Origin: Mesotaenium endlicherianum | Taxonomy: Eukaryota | Direction: 5' to 3' | Length of the DNA stretch: 40,471 bases | Assembly: GCA_009602735.1 (NCBI GenBank) | Contig: WELA01002297.1 | Location: 638,805-679,275 of the forward strand | Shown: one piece after another, positions 3,386 to 40,471 of the stretch | Layout of the letters: every line of letters begins with the position of its first letter | Position numbering within the stretch: the stretch's first letter is position 1 | Notes under the pieces: model-generated | Seen by the model: the letters and a program-made list of their open reading frames with translations, nothing else | Told to the model about the DNA's origin: nothing | Database searches by the model: none | Program-made: the position numbers and the translations under genes

Positions 3386-20195
<16,810 letters not shown>

Positions 20196-23129: not shown

Positions 23130-24557
23130 ATCTACCTATAGAACAGCCCCTGGATAGGAAGAGGGTTGAGAGCAACGATGCGTGCTGTGAAGCTTGAGCA
23201 AAAATGGTTGCAAAGGGTGCAACTGCAGAAGATTTTGGCCACGTCTTTAGTCATGCCGCCCCACCAGTACTCAGCCTGGAAAACGCTGAGCGTGTGCTTG
23301 ACACCAAAGTGTCCAAGTGCCTTGCATGCTTGCACCAACTGGTTTCGTATAGCAGGCTCAAAAACCACCAAGACAGAGTCGTTCGCCATCACGAGTTACA
23401 CTCAGCCCTCCGTGTAGATATAGTTGCGGGCGCGCTTGAGCACGCAGCCGAGCTCCTTTGCGTCAATGTCGGGCACCATTTGTTGCATGGAGATGTAAAA
23501 GCAGCGTCGTGTTGTCCCACACGTCCTCTGGCCCTTTGCAGTGCATCTTGCTCCTCTGCTACTGCCATGGCAAGACAACGGGTGGTGATAGTGACGATGA
23601 CGAGGTTGGTGAGCCCCACGGGCCACACGTTGCCGTCGATGGAGAAGGCTAGGAATGCCGTTGCGTGACAGGGCACCGGCTTGTCCTTGTCGTGGCGGGC
23701 CGCTGTCAGAATTTGTGATGAAGGTTGAGGCTTACGGCTGAGGCCGTTGGCGTTGAGGTTGGTCTCTCTTGTGCGGTGGTGCACGTAAAACTCATACTCT
23801 TGGAGGATGAGGGCCCATCACGCGTACTTGCTTGTAAGGTGCTCCAAGGTCATAGACCACTTGAATGGTTGGTCGTTGATGACAAGGCAGAAGCGGGCAC
23901 CGTAGAGGTAGTGGACAATCGCCCAGAATGCTGCAAGACACTCACCCTTGTAGGGCTCGTAGTTACCCTGTGCGCGGTTGCTGCTACAACTGGCGTAAGC
24001 CATCTCGAGACTCGTGCTACACGCTCTCATGCTCCTGAACCAACACCACTTCCAACCCTGCCTGCGACCAATCCGTGTGGAGGATGAAGAGCTTGGTATG
24101 GTTGGGCCGCCGCAACATCGAGAAGCTCACCAGCAGCTTCTCGAGCTTGTCAATTGCTAATTGCTGCTCGGTGCCCTAAACGTAGGCCACCCCCTTTTCC
24201 AGCAGATCGTTGTGCGGCTTAGCAAGCTCGTTGAAGCCGGCACAAACTGTCGGTTATAGTTGGTCAGCCCAAGGAAGGCTCTCAACTCAGAAATGCCGGT
24301 GGGAGGCGAGATGCCCGCAATGGCCGAGAACTTGGCCAACTGCGGAGCCAACCTGCTGGTTTAAAGGAGATGCCCCAAGTACTTTACCTCCCTCGTACTA
24401 AGTATGCACTTGCCTCGGTGACACTTGTGCCCAGCGTCAGCCAAGCGCTCCAACACTGTCGTCATGTACTCCAGGTGCTCCTCGAACGTCACGTTGAAGA
24501 TGAGCACGTTGTACATATAGCATCAAGTGAAGGAAAGCCCAACCAACTCCCTTTGGA
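23130..24557 (-). pseudogene. Old degenerate Ty3/Gypsy pol remnant (RT C-half, RNase H, integrase HHCC)
   Basis: Minus-strand fragments: ELVGLSFT*CYMYNVLIF..FEEHLE..KCHRGKC..VKYLGH (YxDD decayed); ELRAFLGLTNYNRQFV; AYASCSSNRAQGNYEPYKGECLAAFWAI; NANGLSRKP; GHFGVKHT..YWWGGMTKDV..CTLC..PLPIQGLFYR. Many stops and frameshifts. Confidence 0.88.
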
Positions 24558-25488
24558 TGTGAGAAAAGGGTCACCGTAAGCTCAAAAGATGCGAAGTTCA
24601 ATATTTTGCCCTGCAAGTTAGCTTTTCACTCGGACTTTTAATATGTGCACGGAGCAGCGCGGAGAAGGGGAACAAAAATCACGGAGGAGAAATGAAATTG
24701 GGGTGTCAGGTTGAACACGTCATTTTTGACAGCTGGACCAACCATGACAAGGATAATTTGACGTGAGGGATGAAAGGGGGAAGGGGTGCAAGAAGTGCGC
24801 CCATACACACTCACGCACCCTCGCCCGCAAGTGGAAGCGTGCACGAGGACTTTTCCTAGTTGCATACACAAGGTGGAGTGGCCTGGTGGTATGCCACCCT
24901 TGCAAGAGTTAGAGGGCTACGTGAGAGAGGAGTAGAAAACAACTCACTTTTTCAAGAAAAGTCGGTTACAAGATAAGAAGGTTAGACTAGACTAGACAAG
25001 ACCCCCTCTCCTTCTTTGTGCTTCCTATTTACGCTTCAACTCTAAGTGTCCTCTCTAGCAAAGTACCTCAAAAACCTTCTACTATGGCTCCTTCCATGTA
25101 GGTGACCTTGCCTAGTTGGACAAGCTAGCACACTCACACGCACACAATCACTCTCTAGAATATTCTACTACACAATCCACTAATTCCTCACGGAGTTTCT
25201 AGAATTCCTACAATCACTTTGGAACTCTACGTAATTGTACGTAGTTTCTGGAATCCTCATCATTGAATGTCCCACTTCCTGGACTCCAACCGAAATTTTC
25301 GTCAGTGGACCTGTCCTTGTCATTAAATTGAATCTGTGACGATAAAAACTCACTTAAAACTTCCAAAATTCATAAATTTCTCAATACTTGTCCAAATGAC
25401 TTGAAATAAAGGCCGAAGTTGTTCTAAATTCACACTCTATTTATATAAAATGCTAGAAAGGTACAAACTACACTTTCATAACCTTACA
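24558..25488 (-). mobile_element. 931-bp 3' LTR of a second Gypsy-type element inserted into the old RT
   Basis: Bounded by TGTGAG...CTTACA (TG..CA, 5/6 inverted). The left edge coincides with the break in the old RT reading frame and the right edge abuts a PPT. Confidence 0.7.
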
Positions 25489-28500: not shown

Positions 28501-28980
28501 ACGTACAAAAATCTGGTTGCATCCAAGTTAACACCTCTTGGAGCACCTCCCTCTTCCCATCTCTTCCCTCCTTCAAGAGAGTGAAAACTTCGAAACTCAT
28601 AACTTTCTCAATACTTGTCCAAATGACTTGAAATAAAGGCCAAATTTCTTCTAAAATCACACTCTATGCATATAAAATGCTAGAAAGGTACAAACTACAC
28701 TTTCATTACCTTAGAAGGGAAGTCTTGTATTTTTTAAAAGTTGCAAATTTCCTCGCCTTCATTTTCATTTTTTGGGGGGTAAAGTCATAATTTGCCCAAA
28801 CTTAAAACAAATACAAACTCAAATTCACTTTCAACCTCAAAGTCAAGCTCTAAAGTTTCTGAACTTATTGATCCACAATATCGTCATGGGCACGCTCAGC
28901 CAAATAGACTAACCAACCATAACAAAATGGCCAATTGCCATGACCATTTTTGGAAAGACTTGCCATACTTGACCATTTCA
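25489..28980 (-). mobile_element. Internal region of the 24558-25488 LTR element; degenerate, no recognisable gag/pol
   Basis: Adjacent to the PPT, purine-rich on the minus strand, only short ORFs. Contains a ~90% copy of the LTR end (28584-28715 vs 25356-25488). The right boundary is uncertain. Confidence 0.45.
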
Positions 28981-29038
28981 GTATTTTGAATAATCCTTTG
29001 ATATAGAAATTTCTCTGTTTGGCTCAAATTGTCCGCTT

Positions 29039-29193
29039 TGGGCCATAGATCTTGCTTTTTTACCAAAGTTACGGTTTAAGCGTGTTGCACAGGAGGAAAG
29101 TCATAAGACAAACTTTTGGGGTACTCACAAGCTCTACCAGCGGAAGGCGATGTCTTTCAAACTGAAAAACGCTCTCGCCACCTTCTAACGAGG
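29039..29193 (+). pseudogene. Short degenerate Gypsy RT fragment on the + strand
   Basis: Translates WAIDLAFLPKLRFKRVAQEESHKTNFWGTHKLYQRKAMSFKLKNALATF*R, aligning to IIDL..GKTAFWAQRELWQWTVMPFGLKNAPAIFQR of the RT in ORF 34029-35747. Confidence 0.75.
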
Positions 29194-29258
29194 ATGTCCC
29201 TAAAACATCAGTTTATCGTTATGTCTTTTTAACCCCAACTTTACCACGGGATCTTCAC

Positions 29259-29422
29259 ACCCTGCAAATTGGCCTTTCACTTGGACTTTATAAATGTGCA
29301 CGGAGGAACATGGAGAAGGGGAAAAAAAAGCACGAAGAAGAGGGGGAAAAAGGGAGTGTCGAGTAAAACACCTTATTTTTGGCAGCTGCATTGATATTGA
29401 CTGGGATAATTTGACGTGAGGG
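29259..29422 (-). mobile_element. Diverged LTR fragment related to 24609-24769
   Basis: Colinear blocks CCCTGCAA..TTTCACT.GGACTTT..ATGTGCACGGAG..GGAGAAGGGGAA..TTTTT..CAGCTG..GGATAATTTGACGTGAGGG occur in both. Confidence 0.7.
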
Positions 29423-29668
29423 TAGTTCCATATTCTTTGAATATTTGGGGTACTTTGCCTTTATGTTTTATCTTGGGGAGCAAAATCATAAATTGCCCTT
29501 TAAGTTCAGTTCAAAGGTGTTTACAGGTGCGGTCCCATTCTAGCTTGAGCCGTGGGCTAAGTAATTATTTGCTTATGAATACATTTGTGCTGCATCAGCT
29601 CACCATGGCAACTAAATAACAAAGAGAGCTTTGTGCCATAATAGAAACGCAAGAGTAATTTTGTAACA

Positions 29669-30136
29669 ATACGAACGAAGAGGTAACTCGAGGTACTTTG
29701 ATCGCGCGCCAATTTTACGTACACAATTCAAACCGACACTTCCTGTCGCTTTCGCGACGTGTCGCACGCGCAGCATCAGTCCACGCGGCGGATCGCTACA
29801 CTCCTCCCACCTACAAGTGTGCACTTTCCGGGCACTTAGGCCGCGGCGGTGCGAGGGACGTTGTTCCGGGATAGTGTTCTTCCTTCGTACGATCCAAAGA
29901 TTGCCATACGACGGTACCATCCACCAGTCTCGCATCCATTGGGGTTTGAACCCTCGTCTCCTAGATACGGTTGCGTATATTCGCGCTCCGGTACCAATAT
30001 GACGATACAAACAAAAAGGTAACTTGAGGTACTTTGATGGCGTGCCAATTGTACTCATACAATCCAAATTGACACTTCATGTCGCTTTCGCAATGTGTTG
30101 CACGCGCCGCATCCGGCCACGCGGCGGATCATTACA
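29669..30136. repeat. Pair of 132-bp direct repeats (29669-29800 and 30005-30136, offset 336 bp)
   Basis: Gap-free alignment AGGTAACT.GAGGTACTTTGAT...GACACTTC.TGTCGCTTTCGC...CCACGCGGCGGATC with roughly 20 substitutions. Confidence 0.9.
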
Positions 30137-31265
30137 AATTTTCTCATGTCTGTTGAGTCAAATGTACGTGAATGATTGCGCCGACGCATGGATAGCTAAC
30201 TTCTATGGTACAAAGCGGGCCCCCCGAAGTACAAGTTTTCAATTATAGGCAAAAGTGTGCCTTCTCGGGCTCCTTGTGGCCTTGGAAACTCCTTCCATTT
30301 CGCGCCTTCTCCTTCCTTCCCCCCCTCCCTCCTTCTCCTTCGAGAATGAGGGCTCGTGCTTTATCCAAGCAGCTGCATGCACTCACCTTGAAGTTAGTGG
30401 TTAAGCTAACTCATGACGAGTCCACAGGCATGTGCGCTTTGCCTCATAGGCATCGCGCGTTACAGCGTGAACCCCCCTGTCAGTGCCCAAGCTGACGTGG
30501 GTTTCAAGACCATGTCTGATGTTGTGGCAGCGCCTTCGTGGCAGCGATGCCAACAGGCCATGGGTTGTGGTGGCCTATTACCTCGTCTTTGCCTTGACTT
30601 AACAATGCCCATTTTGAATTTGACGATCGCGCATGCATCGGTACGTGCTTATTTGCATCCTCTAACTAATAATGACAATCCTTGTTGATAGAGTGATCGG
30701 CAAGAAGAGGTCATTTGAGAACTCGAAGGACTTCAAGTCTGCTCAAGAGCAGACTTCAAAATCGGAGCTCGATTGAGTGAAACCACGAAGGTCAATCAAT
30801 CTAATTTATCAACTTCAATCAATCATGTCGAGTCTGGAGATCATTGTAACAACACTTTTATCACGCTCTATTTGTATATGTACTTCAAGGTGCAACGCCG
30901 TACTTTTCAATCAATCAAGTCGCGTTTGATTTGGCCTCTGTTAATTGGGCCTTAGCAGCTGCTGGCATGGCCCTTCCTGGCTTGGGCAAGGGCAGTCCCA
31001 CAGCTAACCTGGCTTGCAAATCATTTCCTATTGTTGGGTGTCGGAATTGACCGGGTTTATGTGATGACTCTACACGTGTGATGAAATGGACTCGCGTCCA
31101 ACGCTGACTGACACATGTCAGCAGGGCCTGGTCAGTGGATCGACAGTTGACTGTCCGTTCCTAAGCACGCTCTGCTACGCGTGCCAAACCGCCCGGTGAG
31201 TAAGTCGCGGCATCGTATCGAACCAAGATTTAACCTACATTTTTGCAGATTCAACATACCTGTTG

Positions 31266-31564
31266 TGCCTAACAGTGTTGGTCCCTCGGCACGTGCGTAG
31301 CCTTCCAGCACGTGTGCCTTTGACCTGGTCGATGTGTCGGTGGCCCTCCTCACGTGTGGGCAAACATGGTCGATCGACCTTCGCACGTGTGTCGGTGACA
31401 AGCCTTACCAAGGTTGACCCATCCCTGGGCTCCTGAACTTGCACCATGCAACCATGACCAACACTCAGAGCAATGTTCTCCTTCACCCAGCTCGCACCAT
31501 CTGCTCATCTTAAGACTAAGCAGAAAATTTTAAAAATACTTGCCTTGTCTTAATTCCTCTTACA
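31266..31564 (-). repeat. Second copy of the LTR terminus (near-identical to 32823-33116)
   Basis: About 8 substitutions and one 5-bp indel over ~295 bp. Both copies end in CTCTTACA. Weaker similarity continues at 31090-31215 vs 32700-32820. Confidence 0.9.
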
Positions 31565-33116
31565 AGGACGGAAGTCTCTTACTTCCACATAGGCTTTATG
31601 CCTTAAGGTTCTTGGGCTCACAGGCGAGCAAATTGTAGTTAGCAAAAATCACACTCTAAGCAGCTTGACATACAACGTCAGATTCAGAGAAAATTGCCCG
31701 TCAGGCTTTTGCTTAAAATTCACAAAGTCACAGTTTCCAAAACTCTGAAACTACCCGTCTATGCTGGCCTGGGTCAAGCTCTTCACTTAACACCGCGCCT
31801 TAACAACTCTTCATTGCCAGGCTAGGCTCACTCAGTTCTTCACTAAGAGCTTTATCTGCCAATACTACTCTCTCTCTTCGAGATGCCAATGCGACTTCTG
31901 AGAACTTGGAAACTAACACACAACTCACCATTTTAAAGCTGCTTCACACACACTTGTGGCGTTCGGCCGAATCTGTGCTAATCTTCTAGCAGATTCTATT
32001 CTGCAGTTCTCCTACTTTCAACAGTGAGATTCCCTCTTGGGAACTCCTACAATCCTGACTTATCTATGATACACTGAGAAGAATCTTCAGCGTCGGCAGA
32101 AGCGTGGGGCCTCGGCTCTCCAATGGCCTTGGGAACTCCTTCTTCTTCTTTGCGCCCTTCTTCTCCTTCCTTTTGCTCCTTCTGCTCCTGCTGCTTCTTG
32201 ACAAAAGTGCGTGAGAGTGAATGACATGTCTCGGGCAAGATTCGTGCCTTTCGCAGGCACCACACAGCGTCATCTTCCGAGAATGCCGTGCTTAGTCACA
32301 AAGCTTAGCTGCATGTCGCTTCTGCCTAGCCGTGCTCAACTCAAGCTCGTAGTCGCTCAGTATGCATGCACACCTCGTGACTGTCGCGCGTGGCTGCTTA
32401 GCTTCTCAGCTGGCAGTCACGCCTAATTGGCTCATGGCTAAAAACTCCTGAGCGGCTTGTACAAGCAAATGCCACTTGCTCAAGATTCCCAACCGGGCGG
32501 CCGTAACCTATCTTGGCATTGCGGCCATGACCTGGCTTAATCTGCCAGTCACACAGTACCTGACTTGGTACCTGCTGGGCGGCGCATCACTGATCCCCAG
32601 CTTCTAACCTTGCGGTTGTCTATGCTGTCAAAACCTCCCCCATCCCTGGGTGTGGGGCACATTGACATTGACCCCTTGCCAGTGGTCTTGACGCCGACAT
32701 AACCGCTGACTGCGACGTAATCAGTCAAGTGGTCGGTGAGTCAACGTTGACATTCCGTACCTGGGTGGCCGTAGCTTGCGCTGCGCGTGCGGCACCGTCA
32801 AACGGATAATAGTCGCGACAGCTGCCTAACAGTGTCGGTCCCTCGGCATGTGCGTAGCCTCCCAGCACGTGTGCCTTTGACCTGGTCGATGTGTCGGTGG
32901 CCCTCCTCACGTGTGGGCAAACATGGTCGATCGACCTTCGCACGTGTGTCGGTGACAAGCCTTACCAAGGTTGACCCATCCCTGGGCTCCTGAACTTGCA
33001 CCATGCAACCATGACCAACACTCAGAGTAATGTTCTCCTTCACCCAGCTCTCACCATCTGCTTATCCTAAGACTTAGCAGAAAATTTTAAAAATACTTGC
33101 CTTAATTCCTCTTACA
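31565..33116 (-). mobile_element. 3' LTR of the DNMT-Gypsy element (~1.55 kb; left limit uncertain)
   Basis: Starts TGTAAGAGG at 33116 directly after the PPT and is non-coding. Its distal end abuts another LTR terminus at 31564 rather than showing a clean terminal dinucleotide. Confidence 0.65.
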
Positions 33117-33128
33117 CCCCTCCCTTTC
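33117..33128 (-). promoter_or_regulatory. Polypurine tract
   Basis: Minus strand GAAAGGGAGGGG immediately before TGTAAG, ~35 nt after the pol stop at 33164. Confidence 0.85.
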
Positions 33129-33163
33129 AGCTGAGGCGTCCCTGCCTTTTCTGCTAAAAGCTA

Positions 33164-34075
33164 TTATTTTCCAGCCCTGCGGCTGAGGGGTTTAGGAAGG
33201 CAGTCAGGACATTCCCATTGTCCTGCCATAATCTCTTCCTCGCCAATGCAGAAAGTGTGCCAACGGGCACCACACTTATCGCAAGTTACCATTGCTTCCT
33301 GATCATCTAGCACTTTGCAGCTGGCGCAAGGCGTGGCTGGCACCAATTCCTCGGGCACAACCCTAACCGTAGGATCAATATTCGGCAAATGGCATAGCGA
33401 GCAATTCTGCACGTGGTCTCTCATGGTTTTACCATCAGAATCTTCCAGTTTTAACACACCATTGTCAAACGCATGTTTCACGCGTAAGATCACTGCACCT
33501 GAATTGGTGTCGATGGTGGTCTTGGTCTGGCGCTTGCGGTAGACGAAGTCTCCTTCTTGAATCTGCGTCATCTGCAGGCAGTAGCTCCCGTCTCGCGTCC
33601 TGGCGTAACGCTGCGTATCTCTTTTCTGCGCAATTTTCAGATTGTCCAGTGCAACCGGCATCATGCGCTCAAATAACGCCTTACGGCGTACCATCACTTT
33701 TAGCAATTCATCAGGGCTGTCCAGGTCTTTCACCTGTTCAATCTCTTGCTTGATGCTGCTGGGCACTACTGGACTTCTGCCGAACAGTATCTGATATGGC
33801 GAGTAATTCGCCAAGGCAGCCTGCTTGCTAAATCTGTAACCCATGACCAGCCATGGCAGGGCCAGATCCTAGTCATGCTTGTCATGCTCAAGGCAAAACT
33901 TGCGCAAAGCAAACTTAATGATTTGCACCATCCTTTCTGCCAGACCATCTGCTTGCGGATGATCTCTAGACGTAGTGCGATGATCGATGAAGCATCTATC
34001 CAAGAGTTTCTGAAAAGACCCTTGGAACTCAAACCCTTGGTCTGTCAGCACTTTTGCTGGAGCTCCATGATGCAC
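33164..34075 (-). pseudogene. Integrase catalytic C-half, C-terminal region and PHD finger (33200-33328)
   Basis: HGAPAKVLTDQGFEF..HPQADGLAER (second D and E of DDE); in-frame TAG at 33869; YSPYQILFGR; CASC..CDKC..WH..C..WECPDC (C4HC3). Confidence 0.92.
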
Positions 34076-35965
34076 AGCTTTGGCAGGCCTTGATCACATC
34101 TTCACCTTGCTGCTTCATGCCCCTCCACCAGTACGACAGCTCCAAAAGACTATACGTCTTCTTGACACCATAGTGTCCAGTGTTCTCGTGCATTTCCTGC
34201 ACAAGAGCTCGTCTCCTGATGGGTTCTGGCACTAACTTCTCCTGACCAGTTTCTTCAATTTTGAAGAGGTTGTTGCGTTTCCAGCAAAACCTTTTAGCTC
34301 GATGGCTTACCTGGTCCTTCTCCTTCACTAATAGCCCTTCCAAGTGAGTTCTCGTCTTCAGCCAATGCATAGTAGCTTGATCTTTCCAGATCTCTGGATT
34401 GAACAGGGGTAGAGGCTCAGCTTCACCTGATGCTACCATTCCAGCCATTTCGGCTAGGCAAGCCACCAACTTTGTTGGGCTGCTCGGGTCTTCGTCCTCT
34501 CGAGCTCCTGTTCTATCGTCTGAAGATGGGTCTGGGTTCCTGCTGAGTCCATCGGCGTCGTTGTTGAGCACTCCTGCTCTGTGCACCACCGTCATTTGGT
34601 ACTCTTGCAGCTTAAGAGCCCAGCGAGCCAACTTACCAGTGAGGTCTCCATTCTTCATCAGCCATAGTAATGGTGAGTGATCCGTGATCAGCGTGAAGGG
34701 TCTTCCCCACAGATACTCTCTGAAGTGTGTGACAGCCCAAACCACTGCCAGCAGCTCTCCTTCGTAGGACGAGTAGTTGCTCTCCGCTCGATTGTTAGAG
34801 CGTGAGGCATAGGCAATGACATACTCCTCTCTAGGGCTTGCGGCCTGAGTGAGCACTGCGCCAATTCCCACACGACTCCCGTCAGTGTGCAGATTGAATG
34901 GCTTGAAGTAATCAGGTGTTCGCAAGACTGGGGCTGTTACCAGCCGCTCCTTAAGCTCGTTCATGGTTTTCTCCTGAGCTTCTGTCCATACAAAAGGCAC
35001 ATCCTTTTTCAGGAGTTCCGTCAGGGGTTTAGCAATTCTGCTATAATCCTTCACAAACTTACAATAGTATCCGCTTAGTCCCAATAAAGATTTCAGCTTA
35101 GACACATTCGCAGGTGCAGGTATCTTGTAAATAGCCTTAGTCTTTACAGCCTGAGAGGACATAGCATTGTTCCCATTCTCATGTCCTAGGTAAGGCACAT
35201 GTGCCTCAAAGAATCTGCACTTCCTAGGATGCAGCTTCATCTGGAATTTCTCCAGGCGCTGGAACACTTGTTCCAAGTGCTCGAGGTGCTCCTCTATGCA
35301 CTTGCTGAATACTACCACATCGTCAATGTATGGCTTAGCAAAATCCAGCCCCTCCAGCACTTTATCCATAGTCCTCTGAAATATGGCTGGGGCATTTTTC
35401 AGCCCAAATGGCATTACTGTCCATTGCCAAAGTTCCCTTTGAGCCCAGAAGGCGGTTTTACCTCGATCTTCTGTTTTCACAGGGATCTGGTTGAAGCCTT
35501 GGCGCAAATCAATGATGCTGAACACCTTCCCGATGGTGGCAATTGCAAAGATCCGCTCCGGCGTAGGCATCACATAGCTGGATGGCTCCGTGTAGAGATT
35601 CAGTTGCCTGTAATCTCCACAAATACGAGTGGCAGTGGAATTGCCGGCCTCGTTCTTTTTAGCGACTAGTACTGTGGGAGCCCCATGCACTGAGGTAGAT
35701 TTTTCAATCATGCAGAGCTTATGCAGCTCTTCGCAAGTTTTCTCCACACAATCCCACTCTGTCTGACTGGGTTATCAGTAGTTAGTGTGATCTCACACAC
35801 ACTGGCAGTGGTTCTACCAATCTCCTCCTTAATAAAAGCGAACACCTTGCGGTGTTTCTTCAGCAACCTTTCTACTTGTGCTCTCTGCTGGGCTGTGACC
35901 ATTTTCCCAATGGCAAAAGTCTCAGTTTCAGGTTGCTTCTCCCCAACAAAGGCATACAGTAGTTG
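34029..35965 (-). pseudogene. Reverse transcriptase, RNase H and integrase HHCC zinc finger
   Basis: RICGDYRQLN, IDLRQGFNQI, MPFGLKNAP, YIDD, LHTDGS, IAYASR, ELLAVVWA, TDHSPL, ADGLSR, H..GHYG..CQSC. Frameshifting deletions near 35760 and 34070. Confidence 0.95.
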
Positions 35966-37435
35966 CTACTCCTTGGGTGCAGGTGGGGGCTTTTCGCCCT
36001 CATCTTGGCCCTCAGGCTTTTCTGCCTGATTCTGGCTCTCAGGCTTTTCTACCTGATTCTTAGGAGGCGGGGTAGCAGGCTCTGCAGCTTGCTCCTCCGT
36101 TGCCATAGGCTCTGCAGCCTGTTTCCTAGGCTTTTCACCTTTCCCAATAACGCGTCGCCTCTCCTGCGGTGAGGTGTACGTCAGGCGCCTCTGGATGGGT
36201 TGCCTCAGGAACATTTCCTCGTCGACTGCAGTCCAACTGGTCTCCGTTCCTCCTTCTTCACGTGGCCGAGGTTGGTTTGCCATCGGCCAACCTGCAGGAT
36301 CTGTCCTAGGGCTGATTACCCAGCCCCACTCTTGCTCAATAATAGCCATGCGGGCGACGGTCGTGCCATACTCCTCCCTTGCGGGTGGTGTGACCGTCCA
36401 TGCCTGCGCCAACGTTTGCGGCCTTTGAGGTGCCGCTAGTTGTGCGAGGAAAACATCGTCTGCTGCAGTCAAGCGGCTGATGGTGTTTCTCAGATCCATC
36501 AGTTCCCATTCTAGGATTGCAGGTGTCATGGGAGCAGGTGCCTCCGACCTCTGCATCCTAAGATCTGATAGTTGCAACAAGGGCGTGTTAATGCCGGGCG
36601 GCACACTAATGCCCAATGCCATTGCCCTGCGAATCAAGCCGTCCTCTCCCTCTCTCTGCAGAATATCCCGCAGAGGCGGAGGAGGTGGGGCTGTGGTTCC
36701 TCGCGGAACGCCCTCTCTCTGAGCCTTCCCCTTATGCTTGAAATATCGCTTTAGCATCCTCATAAAAGATGCGTTACCCTCACGGGCCACCTTCCTTGGT
36801 CTGCTTGCGCGACCCTTGGGCTTACCTTGCGCTCTCTCCACTTTAGCAGTGCAGGCAGTCACCTCCTGCCGTTGCGACGGTCGTGCGATTGACTTGGGCT
36901 CTGCCACTGAAAGACTGGCAGTAGGGGTACTGGATGTTGGTGACCTTAGTTCTTCATAAAGGTCTGCCGGGCTTGGCCCCATCAGGTGGTCAGCTACCCA
37001 CTCGTCTGTCCTCAGCTCCTGCAAGTCAAGCAGATCCAACTCTGGCGTGGGAAAACGTGGAATTTCTTCCCTGGCTTCCCCTCCATTGTTGAGTGATGGC
37101 AACTCAAACTCTGCGAGGCCTTGCATCTCTGCATCCTCTCCCTCCTCCGGCTTCTCTGTTCCAGGAGGCGGCGGTTCTTCATCATCTCCTGTGTTGAGCC
37201 TCGCCATGTTGATGATGGCTGACTGTAGAGCGCGAGCTGCTTTCGCCACTTTCTCTTCTTTGAGTCGAGGTGCGTCTGCTTCTAGCAACTGCTCCATGAT
37301 TTGCCTGGTGATCGACTCAGCTGTGCTGCCAACTGTGCCTTGTGGTTGCCCTCTGGCCTCTGGCTCTGGGCTCATCAGAACAGGTGTGGCGGGCAATCTC
37401 TCGACCGTCTCCTTCCTGCGTTCTTCAAAGATCAC
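35966..37435 (-). pseudogene. Pro/Glu-rich pol linker of unknown function between DNMT and RT
   Basis: 489-aa open stretch in the same frame as the DNMT and the RT N-terminus, separated only by stops. Short internal repeats QAAEP x2 and (NQ)xEKP x3. Confidence 0.6.
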
Positions 37436-37471
37436 CTCCAGGCAAATGGTCTTTCAAGACCCTCCAAAATT

Positions 37472-39154
37472 TCATGAATTCTGACTGCATTCTTCGGCCC
37501 ATTCGCCAATATTGCACTGACGTTCTTCATATCTTGACGTTGCCGCGTCTGGGGATGAGTCTCCAAAGATCTGGTCTTGGGCCATGTTTCGTAACTCAGA
37601 ATTGGTCTCTTCCTCCCCTTCCGGCATCCTCACAAATATTTGGCTGGAGCGTTCTGCAGATAATGGGATCTCCTGTGATTTGCTTGCTGCAGCGCTCGCC
37701 AAAGGGTTTGCTTCACTAGTTGCCTGGTCTTCCATGGCTACGTCTTCTCCCAGCCTTCGCAGCTCTCTTTCTAAAGGGTCGTGTAGAGCCGTCATCCGAT
37801 TCTCAATTCGCGCCAGTAGGTCTTGACACCTGGTCAGCTCCGCCACTCTGGTTTCTCTGAGTGCTTCACCTTGGTCAGCCTCAGCTGCGTCCCTTTCAAC
37901 ACCATATTCTTCTTGTCGCTGATGCGCTTCCCTGATAGCTCTCTGATCAGAGGTTGGCACCACATGGACTTCAATTGTTACTGGTCTCGGCCTGGGCCTA
38001 GGCTTGTCAGAGAATGTCATCTGCTGCCAAGTCATAATCGTCTCCACCAACCACGTCATGGAGTGATGCCCAATCATATTGCCGAATATCTTCCCAGCGT
38101 CGTCCTGTCCCACCATCGCAACAATTTCTTGTGCAATGGAGTTGGGTACCCCCGAGCACCTTCCCTTCTCTTCACCTGTCGGCTCTCTCCACTGAGCTTC
38201 TCTGTCGTGCGCATTCTTGACCATTCCTGGTCCTCCATTCACGAATGCGTGTGATCCTGGGTATGCCGTGAAGGTGGGCAGCACCACCCTTGGCCGGCCT
38301 GGCTCGTTGACGACGTACTGTGGGTAGGAATCCCTCCTGATCACTGGCTTGGTTTCCACCATCAGTGCTTCTCCCACAGATACTGCTGTTGGTGAGCGCC
38401 GCGTAATCTCCTCCATCTCCCTCAGGACTTCAATGGACATGCCGTTGGTCCAGAATAGTCTGGCCCGATGTGAGAGTCCTCCGTGCCTGGCGTCATTGAT
38501 CAATACATGATGACCCAAGGTGGAGTCAAAGACCAACCATGGATCTCCTGGCTTCATCTGGTTGTATTCCATCCCTGGATGTACATTCTCAATCACAAAC
38601 ACTGGTGGGTAGAGATGCTGGCGTTCCCGCAGCATACTGATGATTTTCACCAACAATCCCCAGTGTTGTGCTCGCGGGTCATTGAATCCCCTCGTGTTCC
38701 CGGCTTGCGAGAAAGGTTGACAAGGGAATCCCGCAAAGATCCAGTCAATCCTGTAACCATACAGGTCCTCAGACTTCACATCGAGAGTGTTTCCTCCAGC
38801 AAGACACACCAAACTAGAGTCAGTAGGCACCAACGCCTTGTAAAGATGCATTTGCCGCATCTAACTCATGACCTTCTTAAATGCTATGAAAGCACTCTCA
38901 TCATTGTCCACATACAGCACTTTGGATACCTGGATACCTCGCTGAATCAGTGAGATGGTTCCAAAACCAAGTCCGGCGAACAATTCCAGCACCACTACTC
39001 CTCTCCTGCGAAAAGGATCTTCCATCCTCACAATGCCTTGCGGCAGCGGGTCTACTCCTGGCATCAAATTGGCAGCAGACTTAACTGGATAAGGAACTGG
39101 CAGCAGCTCTTGCGGGCCACGGTCCCTATTACTCACAGCTTCCAGTTGCTCCAT
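37472..39154 (-). pseudogene. C5-cytosine DNA methyltransferase (DNMT) embedded in pol, split by one in-frame TAG (38861-38863)
   Basis: Motif I VLELFAGLG (FAGLG 38966-38980); II YVDND; IV IFAGFPCQPFS (FPCQ 38717-38728); V DPR; VI VIENV (38582-38590); VIII HRARLFWTN (38444-38467); IX REPTGEEKGRCSGVP; X KIFGNMI (GN 38078-38083). All in canonical order. Confidence 0.93.
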
Positions 39155-39163
39155 AATCCGAGG

Positions 39164-39720
39164 TTACCAAACCAAGGGAGTCGGCATGTTGACGCTGGTG
39201 TAGCCCTCCTCTTTGCGTTGCATGATGAGGTCATAATGGTCTGGATATCGGTCATTCACACAACAGTACAGCAGTCCGTAGTTTGCCTCTCCCGAGCAAA
39301 CCAGTTTTACAGGAATTTCTCCTGTCGGCTGCCGATCTGTCAACTGGTAAGTCACCCTCTGCTTCCGCAGGTCGATGACCATACCCAGGAGAATCAGAGC
39401 TTCTGTCCCCAAGAGAACATCATAGTTTTTTGCCTCTGTCACCGTGCATTCTATGAGCAGTGACGCCTCCTCAGGTTTCCCCAAGTTTACTGTGATTTTC
39501 ACAGGCTTGCGGGTATTTCCACAAGACTTCGAAATCTGCCTAGATGCAGTCCTCAACTGAAAAGGACTTTCTTACAGGTCCCTTGCCGTCAATCCCAGAG
39601 CTTTCACAGCTCTCTTTCCCAAGATTACTGGCTGTGCGTCAGTGTCCAAGAGGATGTTGGGAGCGGTCCAGTCGTTGAACGTCAAAACTCTATCCTTGTT
39701 CTGCACTCTCACAGTGCTGA
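39164..39720 (-). pseudogene. Retroviral-type aspartic protease (active site DTG changed to DTD)
   Basis: NILLDTDAQPVILGKRAVKALGL (DTD at 39638-39646) ... YDVLLGTEAL. In-frame TAA at 39572 and 39164. Same frame as the DNMT. Confidence 0.85.
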
Positions 39721-39759
39721 AATTAGTAGGCAGCGAAGCGCTGTTTGCGCCTTCCTCAG

Positions 39760-40335
39760 CTATGTCCAGCTGCTGTCCGGCTTCTTCAACCGTGAAAGGA
39801 TACGTAAGACGCAGATCAGCGAGTGAAAGACAAGAATGTGCTGAATCTGGTGTTCCACAAGAGCCTTCAGCTTCTCCAGCGAAAAACTAAATGTCTTGCG
39901 TGGCCCAGGCTTGGCTTGTCGTAGCTGCGCAATCTCGTTCTCATCGAGAGTGATCGGAAAGGTCTGAGGAAGCTTCCCAGCATTCTTTGGAACCAGACGG
40001 TCATGATCTGCGCGCTCCGCAGCCGTTGCAGCCACGGCCTTCTCAGGCGTCAGCTTCTCGCCTTTGCAGACGGTCTTTTCGGCCACATTTGCATCATAAT
40101 AGACATTAGGCACATTTAGTCTTGCGAATTGAGCTTTCAACTCTGCAATCTCTGCACTCATATCATCATACTTCTGGTTACCCTTTTGGTTACCAAAGTT
40201 ATCTTTCTCCTTTTTCTTACCCTTATCTGCCTCTTTCGTGGCAGCATTAGCCCATGGTGGCTTCAGATTTGGATTCTTGGACCAACACTCATCTTCTGAG
40301 TGTCCCTTTTTGCTGCAATGTGCGCATACCTGCTG
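39760..40335 (-). pseudogene. Gag C-terminal part with CCHC zinc knuckle
   Basis: CAHCSKKGHSEDEC (40285-40326) is in frame with ORF 39760-40161. The frame shifts into the protease frame around 39800-39880. Confidence 0.85.
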
Positions 40336-40471
40336 AAATGAATCGACTTACCAAATAGGCGATTAACAATTAATAAAGATCTTTATATCAACAAGTAATC
40401 TTTATGGTACTTTCCGTTAACTGTTTAACGGCAAAAGGACAACGCACTAGCAGTGAATAATACTCGTCAGT

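Follow-up and report, generated by a model that had tools for sequence, protein, structure and literature searches.

A predicted DNMT3-type methyltransferase domain between protease and reverse transcriptase in a decayed Ty3/Gypsy element of Mesotaenium endlicherianum

Why would a retrotransposon carry an enzyme of the class that hosts use to silence transposons? The question is raised by a 40,471-nucleotide stretch of Mesotaenium endlicherianum DNA (contig WELA01002297.1; the whole stretch is called the window here), the last ~9 kb of which hold a minus-strand Ty3/Gypsy element that has decayed, with the order gag, protease (PR), DNA methyltransferase (DNMT), linker, reverse transcriptase (RT), RNase H (RH), integrase (INT) and PHD finger. 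An earlier note, made from the letters of the window alone and called the original prediction below, had drawn attention to the DNMT within pol. The puzzle as such has been in print since 2018 for elements of this kind, to which the window contributes another host and a deviating layout, with a very long linker and a PHD finger. Our reading, to which we assign a probability of about 0.75, is that a decayed Ty3/Gypsy element carries a DNMT3-type domain between protease and RT, and that working copies likely methylated their own new DNA.

We first asked what the locus encodes. The element has the gag-then-PR-RT-RH-INT order of Ty3/Gypsy elements, together with a polypurine tract and a TG...CA 3′ repeat as found in them (Table 1). 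A search against Pfam DNA_methylase (PF00145), which the original prediction had suggested, gave a match for 38030-39046 with the stop read as X (E 3.4e-18; score 66.6 bits, cut-off 22). The motifs that it had named are present in order on the minus strand, and the catalytic Cys of FPCQ is intact. Its span of 37472-39154 was too wide, including ~560 nt of linker and a ~125-nt part of the spacer between protease and DNMT; the domain itself occupies ~38030-39028. It had also called the DNMT complete, a word that has to be qualified, since a TAG at 38863-38861 lies within the domain, between motifs II and IV, and further stops are found upstream in Pol. Because of this internal TAG, the window copy is unable to make the enzyme.

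The protease, DNMT and linker lie in one reading frame with 6 stops in ~1316 codons. The stops number 2, 1 and 3 in the protease, DNMT and linker, respectively, as against means of 13.9, 17.0 and 28.5 in shuffled sequences (minima 6, 6 and 16; 300 shuffles each). The frame through the DNMT is continuous and without sign of introns, and a search for a repeat pair bracketing the domain found none, which agrees with the earlier statement that the DNMT has neither introns nor termini of its own. The claim of a shared frame thus held for the protease and the linker, but the claim that only point stops separate the DNMT from the RT did not: tblastn frames place a frameshift near 35765-35770, between an N-terminal stretch of the RT and the RT core. 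In the integrase core, ~80 codons are deleted near 34066-34080 (the tblastn gap corresponds to residues 2016-2099 of the relative P0167), with a frame change and a later stop. With a stop inside the DNMT, a frameshift before the RT core and a deletion in the integrase, the window copy is dead.

To which type does the methyltransferase belong? When a profile of 40 family members was compared with solved structures, DNMT3A came first (E 6e-25), followed by DNMT3B/C; with the same profile, DRM-type enzymes scored 7e-12 to 1.5e-8, M.HhaI 3.5e-10 and DNMT2 4e-5 to 7e-5. A model of the domain, built from a 40-sequence family alignment, had a predicted local distance difference test score (pLDDT) of 91.6, and a fold search with it ranked DNMT3A/B first (~270 residues, Z 27.1, root-mean-square deviation 2.6), with M.HhaI at Z 23.1. 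The motifs in the window are not rearranged as they are in DRM. The window sequence, which was left out of all three profiles used for scoring, reached 207 bits on the profile of 18 PR-DNMT relatives, 183 bits on that of 20 RH-DNMT-INT proteins and 70 bits on that of 10 viral DNMTs. By profile and predicted fold, the domain is classed as DNMT3-type, nearer to DNMT3A/B than to DRM, DNMT1, DNMT2 or bacterial enzymes, and the DNMT3 likeness suspected from motif VIII was borne out.

We then examined whether the domain is a regular part of the polyprotein. Relatives were drawn from a full HMMER scan (646 representatives at E up to 0.001, with some ordinary DNMTs among them; 150 listed), and domain orders were counted in 154 fetched proteins, using domain profiles built from these same proteins and excluding P0001 and P0010. 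The DNMT stood beside another retroelement domain in 98 of the 154 proteins and was seen alone in the other 56. Among the 98, it lay between protease and RT, the order of the window, in 17, and between RNase H and integrase in 81. Two of the relatives, P0028 and P0178, are intact single open reading frames (ORFs) with the order CCHC-PR-DNMT-RT-RH-INT. According to its protein record, GAQ92009.1 of Klebsormidium nitens has the order PR-DNMT-RT-RH-INT, and it aligns with the window in one continuous run over protease, spacer and DNMT (26% identity over 564 columns, E 4e-35). The same order is seen, over the part that each record covers, in another K. nitens protein and in two proteins of Closterium. 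The spacing between protease and DNMT, 120 aa in the window, lies within the 62-314 aa of the relatives. Judged from these sequences, the DNMT is part of the polyprotein rather than a nested insertion, as the original prediction had held.

Two features of the window copy are unusual, namely the stretch of ~790 residues between DNMT and RT and the PHD finger on the integrase. The former compares with 119-203 aa in nine rows of relatives (some of them cluster duplicates), and the latter was not detected in the seven PR-DNMT-RT proteins long enough to include the integrase, of which some are partial. The linker matched nothing in Pfam, among the fetched proteins or in the Atlas, and its single-sequence model had a pLDDT of 46, results that do not speak against a fold. 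Long linkers may not be unique to the window copy, because one relative has a 483-aa tail after its DNMT.

Other searches for relatives added little. Word-index searches with the window domain alone found none among 1698 longer candidates, and one unrelated multi-DNMT protein among 1215. At the DNA level, a metagenome scan gave one weak locus; no related locus was found in viral and prokaryote genomes, whether scanned with the RT, with an alignment of RTs or with a pattern for motif VIII; and a viral scan with the DNMT profile gave distant viral DNMTs only (best E 7e-11), 10 of which served as outgroups below. Of the two rows dropped from the domain count, P0010 is a repeat-rich SdrD-domain protein, and P0001, of 2187 aa, combines a phage GP88 domain with five stretches of C5 methyltransferase and is unrelated to the element. 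Mesostigma viride has at least four near-identical proteins (P0018, P0179-P0181) in a cluster in which the long members have this DNMT with no flanking retroelement domain detected.

Is the architecture new? The original prediction was right to cite de Mendoza et al. (2018), in which DNMT-bearing retrotransposons are described (PMC5890265). Its suggestion that the architecture may be undescribed was wrong, given the K. nitens Gypsy protein of PR-DNMT-RT-RH-INT order and the grouping of the window with such elements in RT trees (see below). KnitGypsy-Dnmt3 of K. nitens, as presented in that paper, resembles the window element in having an intronless, unrearranged Dnmt3-type domain in the Gypsy Pol ORF and perhaps also in its DIRS-like repeat layout; we presume that GAQ92009.1 is one of the elements of PMC5890265. 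GAQ92009.1 itself differs from the window in its low identity over PR-DNMT, in its DNMT-to-RT distance (203 aa) and in that the window copy is dead, and by that identity the two represent distinct families, probably in different hosts. The window element is very probably a relative of KnitGypsy-Dnmt3 and is classed, from its sequence, as a further member of the published streptophyte Gypsy-DNMT3 kind. "Streptophytes (Gypsy-DNMT3)" are named in bioRxiv 10.64898/2026.05.21.726589, and PMC12344493 repeats "streptophytes and dinoflagellates".

Three further systems were compared by their published descriptions. SymbioDIRS-Dnmt3 of Symbiodinium, for which de novo CG methylation was shown in yeast, likewise has a Dnmt3-type domain in the Pol ORF, with two domain orders coexisting, but as a DIRS element it uses a tyrosine recombinase, unlike the DDE-type integrase of the window Gypsy (PMC5890265; compared by description only). 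EpiLTRs of Cymbomonas and Euglena are also long terminal repeat (LTR) retrotransposons with a C5 DNMT and a chromatin-reader domain; their DNMT, however, is sister to DNMT4, in Cymbomonas occupies the 3′ end of pol, and is accompanied by an adenine methyltransferase and a chromodomain, and the authors call it distinct from streptophyte Gypsy-DNMT3 (bioRxiv 10.64898/2026.05.21.726589). A Pfam search of the element ORFs found neither an adenine methyltransferase nor a chromodomain, which sets the window element apart from EpiLTRs. Gypsy-7a_cRei of Chlamydomonas reinhardtii is, like the window element, a green-algal Gypsy with a PHD finger in its polyprotein and LTRs of subparts, but no methyltransferase is among the domains listed for it (PMC9940879; compared by description only).

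We next addressed the placement of the element by trees, which excluded cluster duplicates and domains under 250-270 aa and held no host DNMT3 rows; outgroups in the DNMT trees were viral only. In a quick RT-RH tree of 54 rows, from which the Closterium RT was absent owing to the length filter, all five PR-DNMT-RT rows, including the window and K. nitens, fell on one side of a branch (Shimodaira-Hasegawa-like approximate likelihood ratio 98). A careful RT-RH tree of 26 rows, with Closterium included and a long-branched Gypsy remnant from the window as root, joined the window, Closterium and two other rows (96/92) and placed 19 RH-DNMT-INT rows in one clade (100/99). The nearest named RT to that of the window was the Closterium one. 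In one DNMT tree, all 73 RH-DNMT-INT rows lay on one side (support 80), with all 15 PR-DNMT rows and the window outside; in another, with 10 viral outgroups, all 46 retroelement-type rows came together (97). The larger group was represented by 20 hand-picked rows in the viral-rooted DNMT tree and 19 in the 26-row tree. Constraining the window DNMT to stay with its architecture group improved the tree by 7.83 log units, and the constrained tree was not rejected (approximately unbiased test, p-AU 0.638). By RT and architecture, the window element thus belongs with the PR-DNMT-RT elements.

What would such an enzyme have done? Pol of Ty3/Gypsy elements is packaged with the element RNA and cut by the protease, and therefore the DNMT would have been in the same particle as the RT and integrase. 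There, with S-adenosylmethionine as donor, it would place de novo methyl groups on cytosines, probably those in CG, of the double-stranded cDNA, either ahead of integration or shortly after it. A copy so made would be marked on arrival and kept marked by the maintenance methylation of the host, with the effect of damping it or of letting it pass for ordinary methylated host DNA. More tentatively, the PHD finger might read histone tails and steer integration. We lean, if only slightly, to de novo methylation of new cDNA as the job of the DNMT. The Ka/Ks values given for the domains of the K. nitens element are below 0.2 (PMC5890265).

Several observations speak against the reading of a DNMT3-type enzyme that marked its own element's DNA. 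The window sequence on its own, when compared with solved structures, matches only M.HaeIII (E 3.7e-6) and not DNMT3, and the fold model leans toward the family, as it was built with the family alignment. Motif IX of the window reads K-G where the family has R in 105 and E in 111 of 114 proteins. The catalytic residues kept in the proteins compared, which are 24-33% identical to the window (motif IV Cys and motif VI Glu in 119/119, both motif VIII Arg in 118/119), speak for the reading, but this conservation was partly selected by the search itself. In the viral-rooted quick DNMT tree, the window forms a long basal branch outside the other 45 retroelement rows (82), and in the 26-row tree, rooted on a long outgroup, the six PR-DNMT-RT rows fail to form a single clade, K. 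nitens standing, at weak support, beside the RH-DNMT-INT group (80/64). KnitGypsy-Dnmt3 gave no methylation in yeast, a negative that the authors called inconclusive because human DNMT3B also failed in the assay (PMC5890265). Finally, the observed/expected CpG ratio is 0.49-0.64 in pol, 0.67-0.71 in the neighbouring host gene and 0.64 in neighbouring repeats. We considered CpG depletion as a sign of self-methylation and found it uninformative; being little different from that of the surroundings, it gives self-methylation no support.

The strongest alternative keeps the same element and domain and gives the enzyme another target: the element RNA, an RNA-DNA intermediate, or, after integration, the flanks or other copies. 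The negative yeast DNA assay would fit it, as would the PHD finger, which suggests action on chromatin; the authors of PMC5890265 leave the role of such enzymes open and raise RNA methylation for LINE-borne ones. We nevertheless regard it as unlikely, as the fold and motifs are DNMT3-like rather than DNMT2-like, DNMT2 being reached by the family profile only at the E values given above, and as the DNMT3-type domains of DIRS elements methylate CG in DNA (PMC5890265).

A second alternative, independent capture, would have this lineage take up a host DNMT3 apart from the Klebsormidium elements and at the same position in Pol. The long basal branch and low identity of the window DNMT, the unusually long linker and the makeup of the trees, which were run without host DNMT3 rows, leave some room for it, and recurrent capture is documented (PMC5890265; bioRxiv 10.64898/2026.05.21.726589). 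We consider it improbable in view of the nesting of the window RT among PR-DNMT-RT elements (96/92), the protease-DNMT spacing within the range of relatives, the continuous alignment to GAQ92009.1 and the better fit of the tree that keeps the architecture group together. Still less credible, and largely refuted, is a one-off nested insertion or processed methyltransferase copy that landed in frame in an ordinary Gypsy, since the same order recurs in 17/154 proteins, some of them intact single ORFs, no repeats bracket the domain, and its GC content at third codon positions (0.58) and codon composition are like those of its neighbours (protease 0.52, RT 0.55).

How old might the association of Gypsy and DNMT3 be? 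The larger group of relatives (81/154 rows, e.g., P0049, P0085, P0168, P0172 and P0173) is ordered RT-RH-DNMT-INT-PHD, with a DNMT related to that of the window. Most of the hits are without an organism name. All five named RH-DNMT-INT proteins are from chlorophytes, namely Scenedesmus, Chromochloris (as we read the code Chrzof1), Hariotina, Haematococcus and Cymbomonas, and all four named PR-DNMT-RT proteins are from streptophytes (Klebsormidium and Closterium). We marginally favour an ancient Gypsy-DNMT3 lineage across green plants, with one capture of a DNMT3 at or before the chlorophyte-streptophyte split and two sister groups that have the domain at two positions in Pol, catalytic residues being kept throughout. 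The streptophyte position (Klebsormidium, Closterium and the window) would be the one between protease and RT, and the chlorophyte position the one between RNase H and a PHD-tailed integrase. A nesting of the RH-DNMT-INT group inside the PR-DNMT-RT group, hinted at by the viral-rooted DNMT tree and the 26-row tree, is not claimed here, because a two-clade tree fits the DNMT data better.

If there was one ancient capture, it took place much earlier than has been reported. In that case, intact ORFs from chlorophytes that can be cultured and transformed would allow a direct test of why a transposon carries a silencing enzyme, and the activity assay in which the K. nitens domain failed would have better material in intact chlorophyte copies. 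In a literature search that reached few subscription papers, Repbase reports, theses or supplements, we found no published report of chlorophyte Gypsy-DNMT3 elements or of the RH-DNMT-INT group. Some RH-DNMT-INT elements (among P0029, P0039 and P0012) are extended, either by a G-patch that follows the DNMT or by a PTM/DIR17-like Tudor domain that follows the PHD finger.

Table 1. Features of the Ty3/Gypsy element and of its DNMT domain, in the direction of the element
Feature	Position in window	Strand	Basis
gag CCHC zinc knuckle	40285..40326	-	read directly in ORF 39760-40347
aspartic protease, decayed, one stop	39377..39712	-	Pfam gag-asp_proteas E 3.5e-4, under curated cut-off
predicted DNMT3-type C5 cytosine methyltransferase domain, motifs I, II, IV, VI, VIII, IX, X	38030..39028	-	Pfam, fold, motifs
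motif LELFAGLG	38989-38966	-	
motif FAGFPCQ (catalytic Cys)	38737-38717	-	
motif IENV	38593-38582	-	
motif RARLFWTN	38467-38444	-	
motif EPTGEE	38185-38168	-	
motif GNMIG	38083-38069	-	
long in-frame linker, ~700 codons, 3 stops, largely disordered	35939..38029	-	stop count, spacing
reverse transcriptase, YIDD intact	35178..35935	-	Pfam RVT_1 E 1.6e-28
RNase H	34599..34988	-	Pfam RT_RNaseH E 5.9e-37
integrase, HHCC zinc domain and C-terminal half of core	33374..34229	-	Pfam Integrase_H2C2 E 7.4e-15
PHD finger, integrase C-terminus	33200..33328	-	Pfam PHD E 9.9e-6, 25.9 bits vs cut-off 24
polypurine tract directly before first terminal repeat	33117..33128	-	read directly
terminal repeat B, first copy, 294 nt, TG...CA	32823..33116	-	repeat comparison
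1258-nt spacer between B copies, candidate "A" unit of A-coding-B-A-B layout	31565..32822	-	
terminal repeat B, second copy, 299 nt, TG...CA, no purine tract ahead	31266..31564	-	repeat comparison

The ends of the element also bear on its relation to KnitGypsy-Dnmt3, for which the legend of Fig. 4c of PMC5890265 states a DIRS-like repeat layout, the DIRS layout being A-coding-B-A-B. Between the two B copies of the window there are 8 substitutions, of which 6 are C/T, and a single 5-nt indel; the purine tract precedes only the first copy. The arrangement B-spacer-B corresponds to the 3′ half of A-coding-B-A-B, with the 5′ A side beyond the window, and fits the layout stated for KnitGypsy-Dnmt3; the same picture would be given by a long LTR with internal end repeats. 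About 100 nt of the B spacer (32095-32197) resemble the downstream flank at 30248-30341 (71%, score 72.5, where shuffles reach at most 40), in part within pyrimidine-rich sequence, perhaps owing to an older related element.

At the other end, the zinc-knuckle stretch of gag matches the equivalent stretch in four relatives (E 3e-6 to 4e-4). Above ~40350, AT-rich sequence (GC 0.34, against 0.48 in gag) closes the gag frame, so the 5′ end of the element lies outside the window. The gag and pol frames differ by -1 near 39889. A programmed -1 frameshift there is a possible reading, though no clean slippery heptamer was seen and in several relatives a single ORF covers gag and pol. The protease, whose limits were set by a locally built profile that itself contained the window segment, aligns with GAQ92009.1 and has D-T-D as its active site, the usual motif being D-T/S-G. 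An Rfam search of 29000-40471 returned no family, and a tRNA search found none.

The remainder of the window holds a host gene at 3993-12598 on the plus strand, with frames continuing to ~20195, which has introns, 60-70% GC and Agenet, MBD, Tify-binding, PHD and IDM1_C domains. By this domain content, it appears to be an IDM1-like anti-silencing histone acetyltransferase, and its closeness to the element is probably due to chance. Inside the gene, a run of 682 C ending in N at 10282-10964 is most likely an assembly artefact. A second Gypsy remnant (23135-24558, minus strand) comprises the end of an RT, an RNase H and the start of an integrase, the last two not separated by a DNMT; it is the remnant that served as root of the 26-row tree. 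The transposon-rich stretch also contains degenerate direct repeats, at 24609-24769 and 29260-29422, at 25356-25486, 28584-28713 and 165-198, and at 29666-29800 and 30002-30136.

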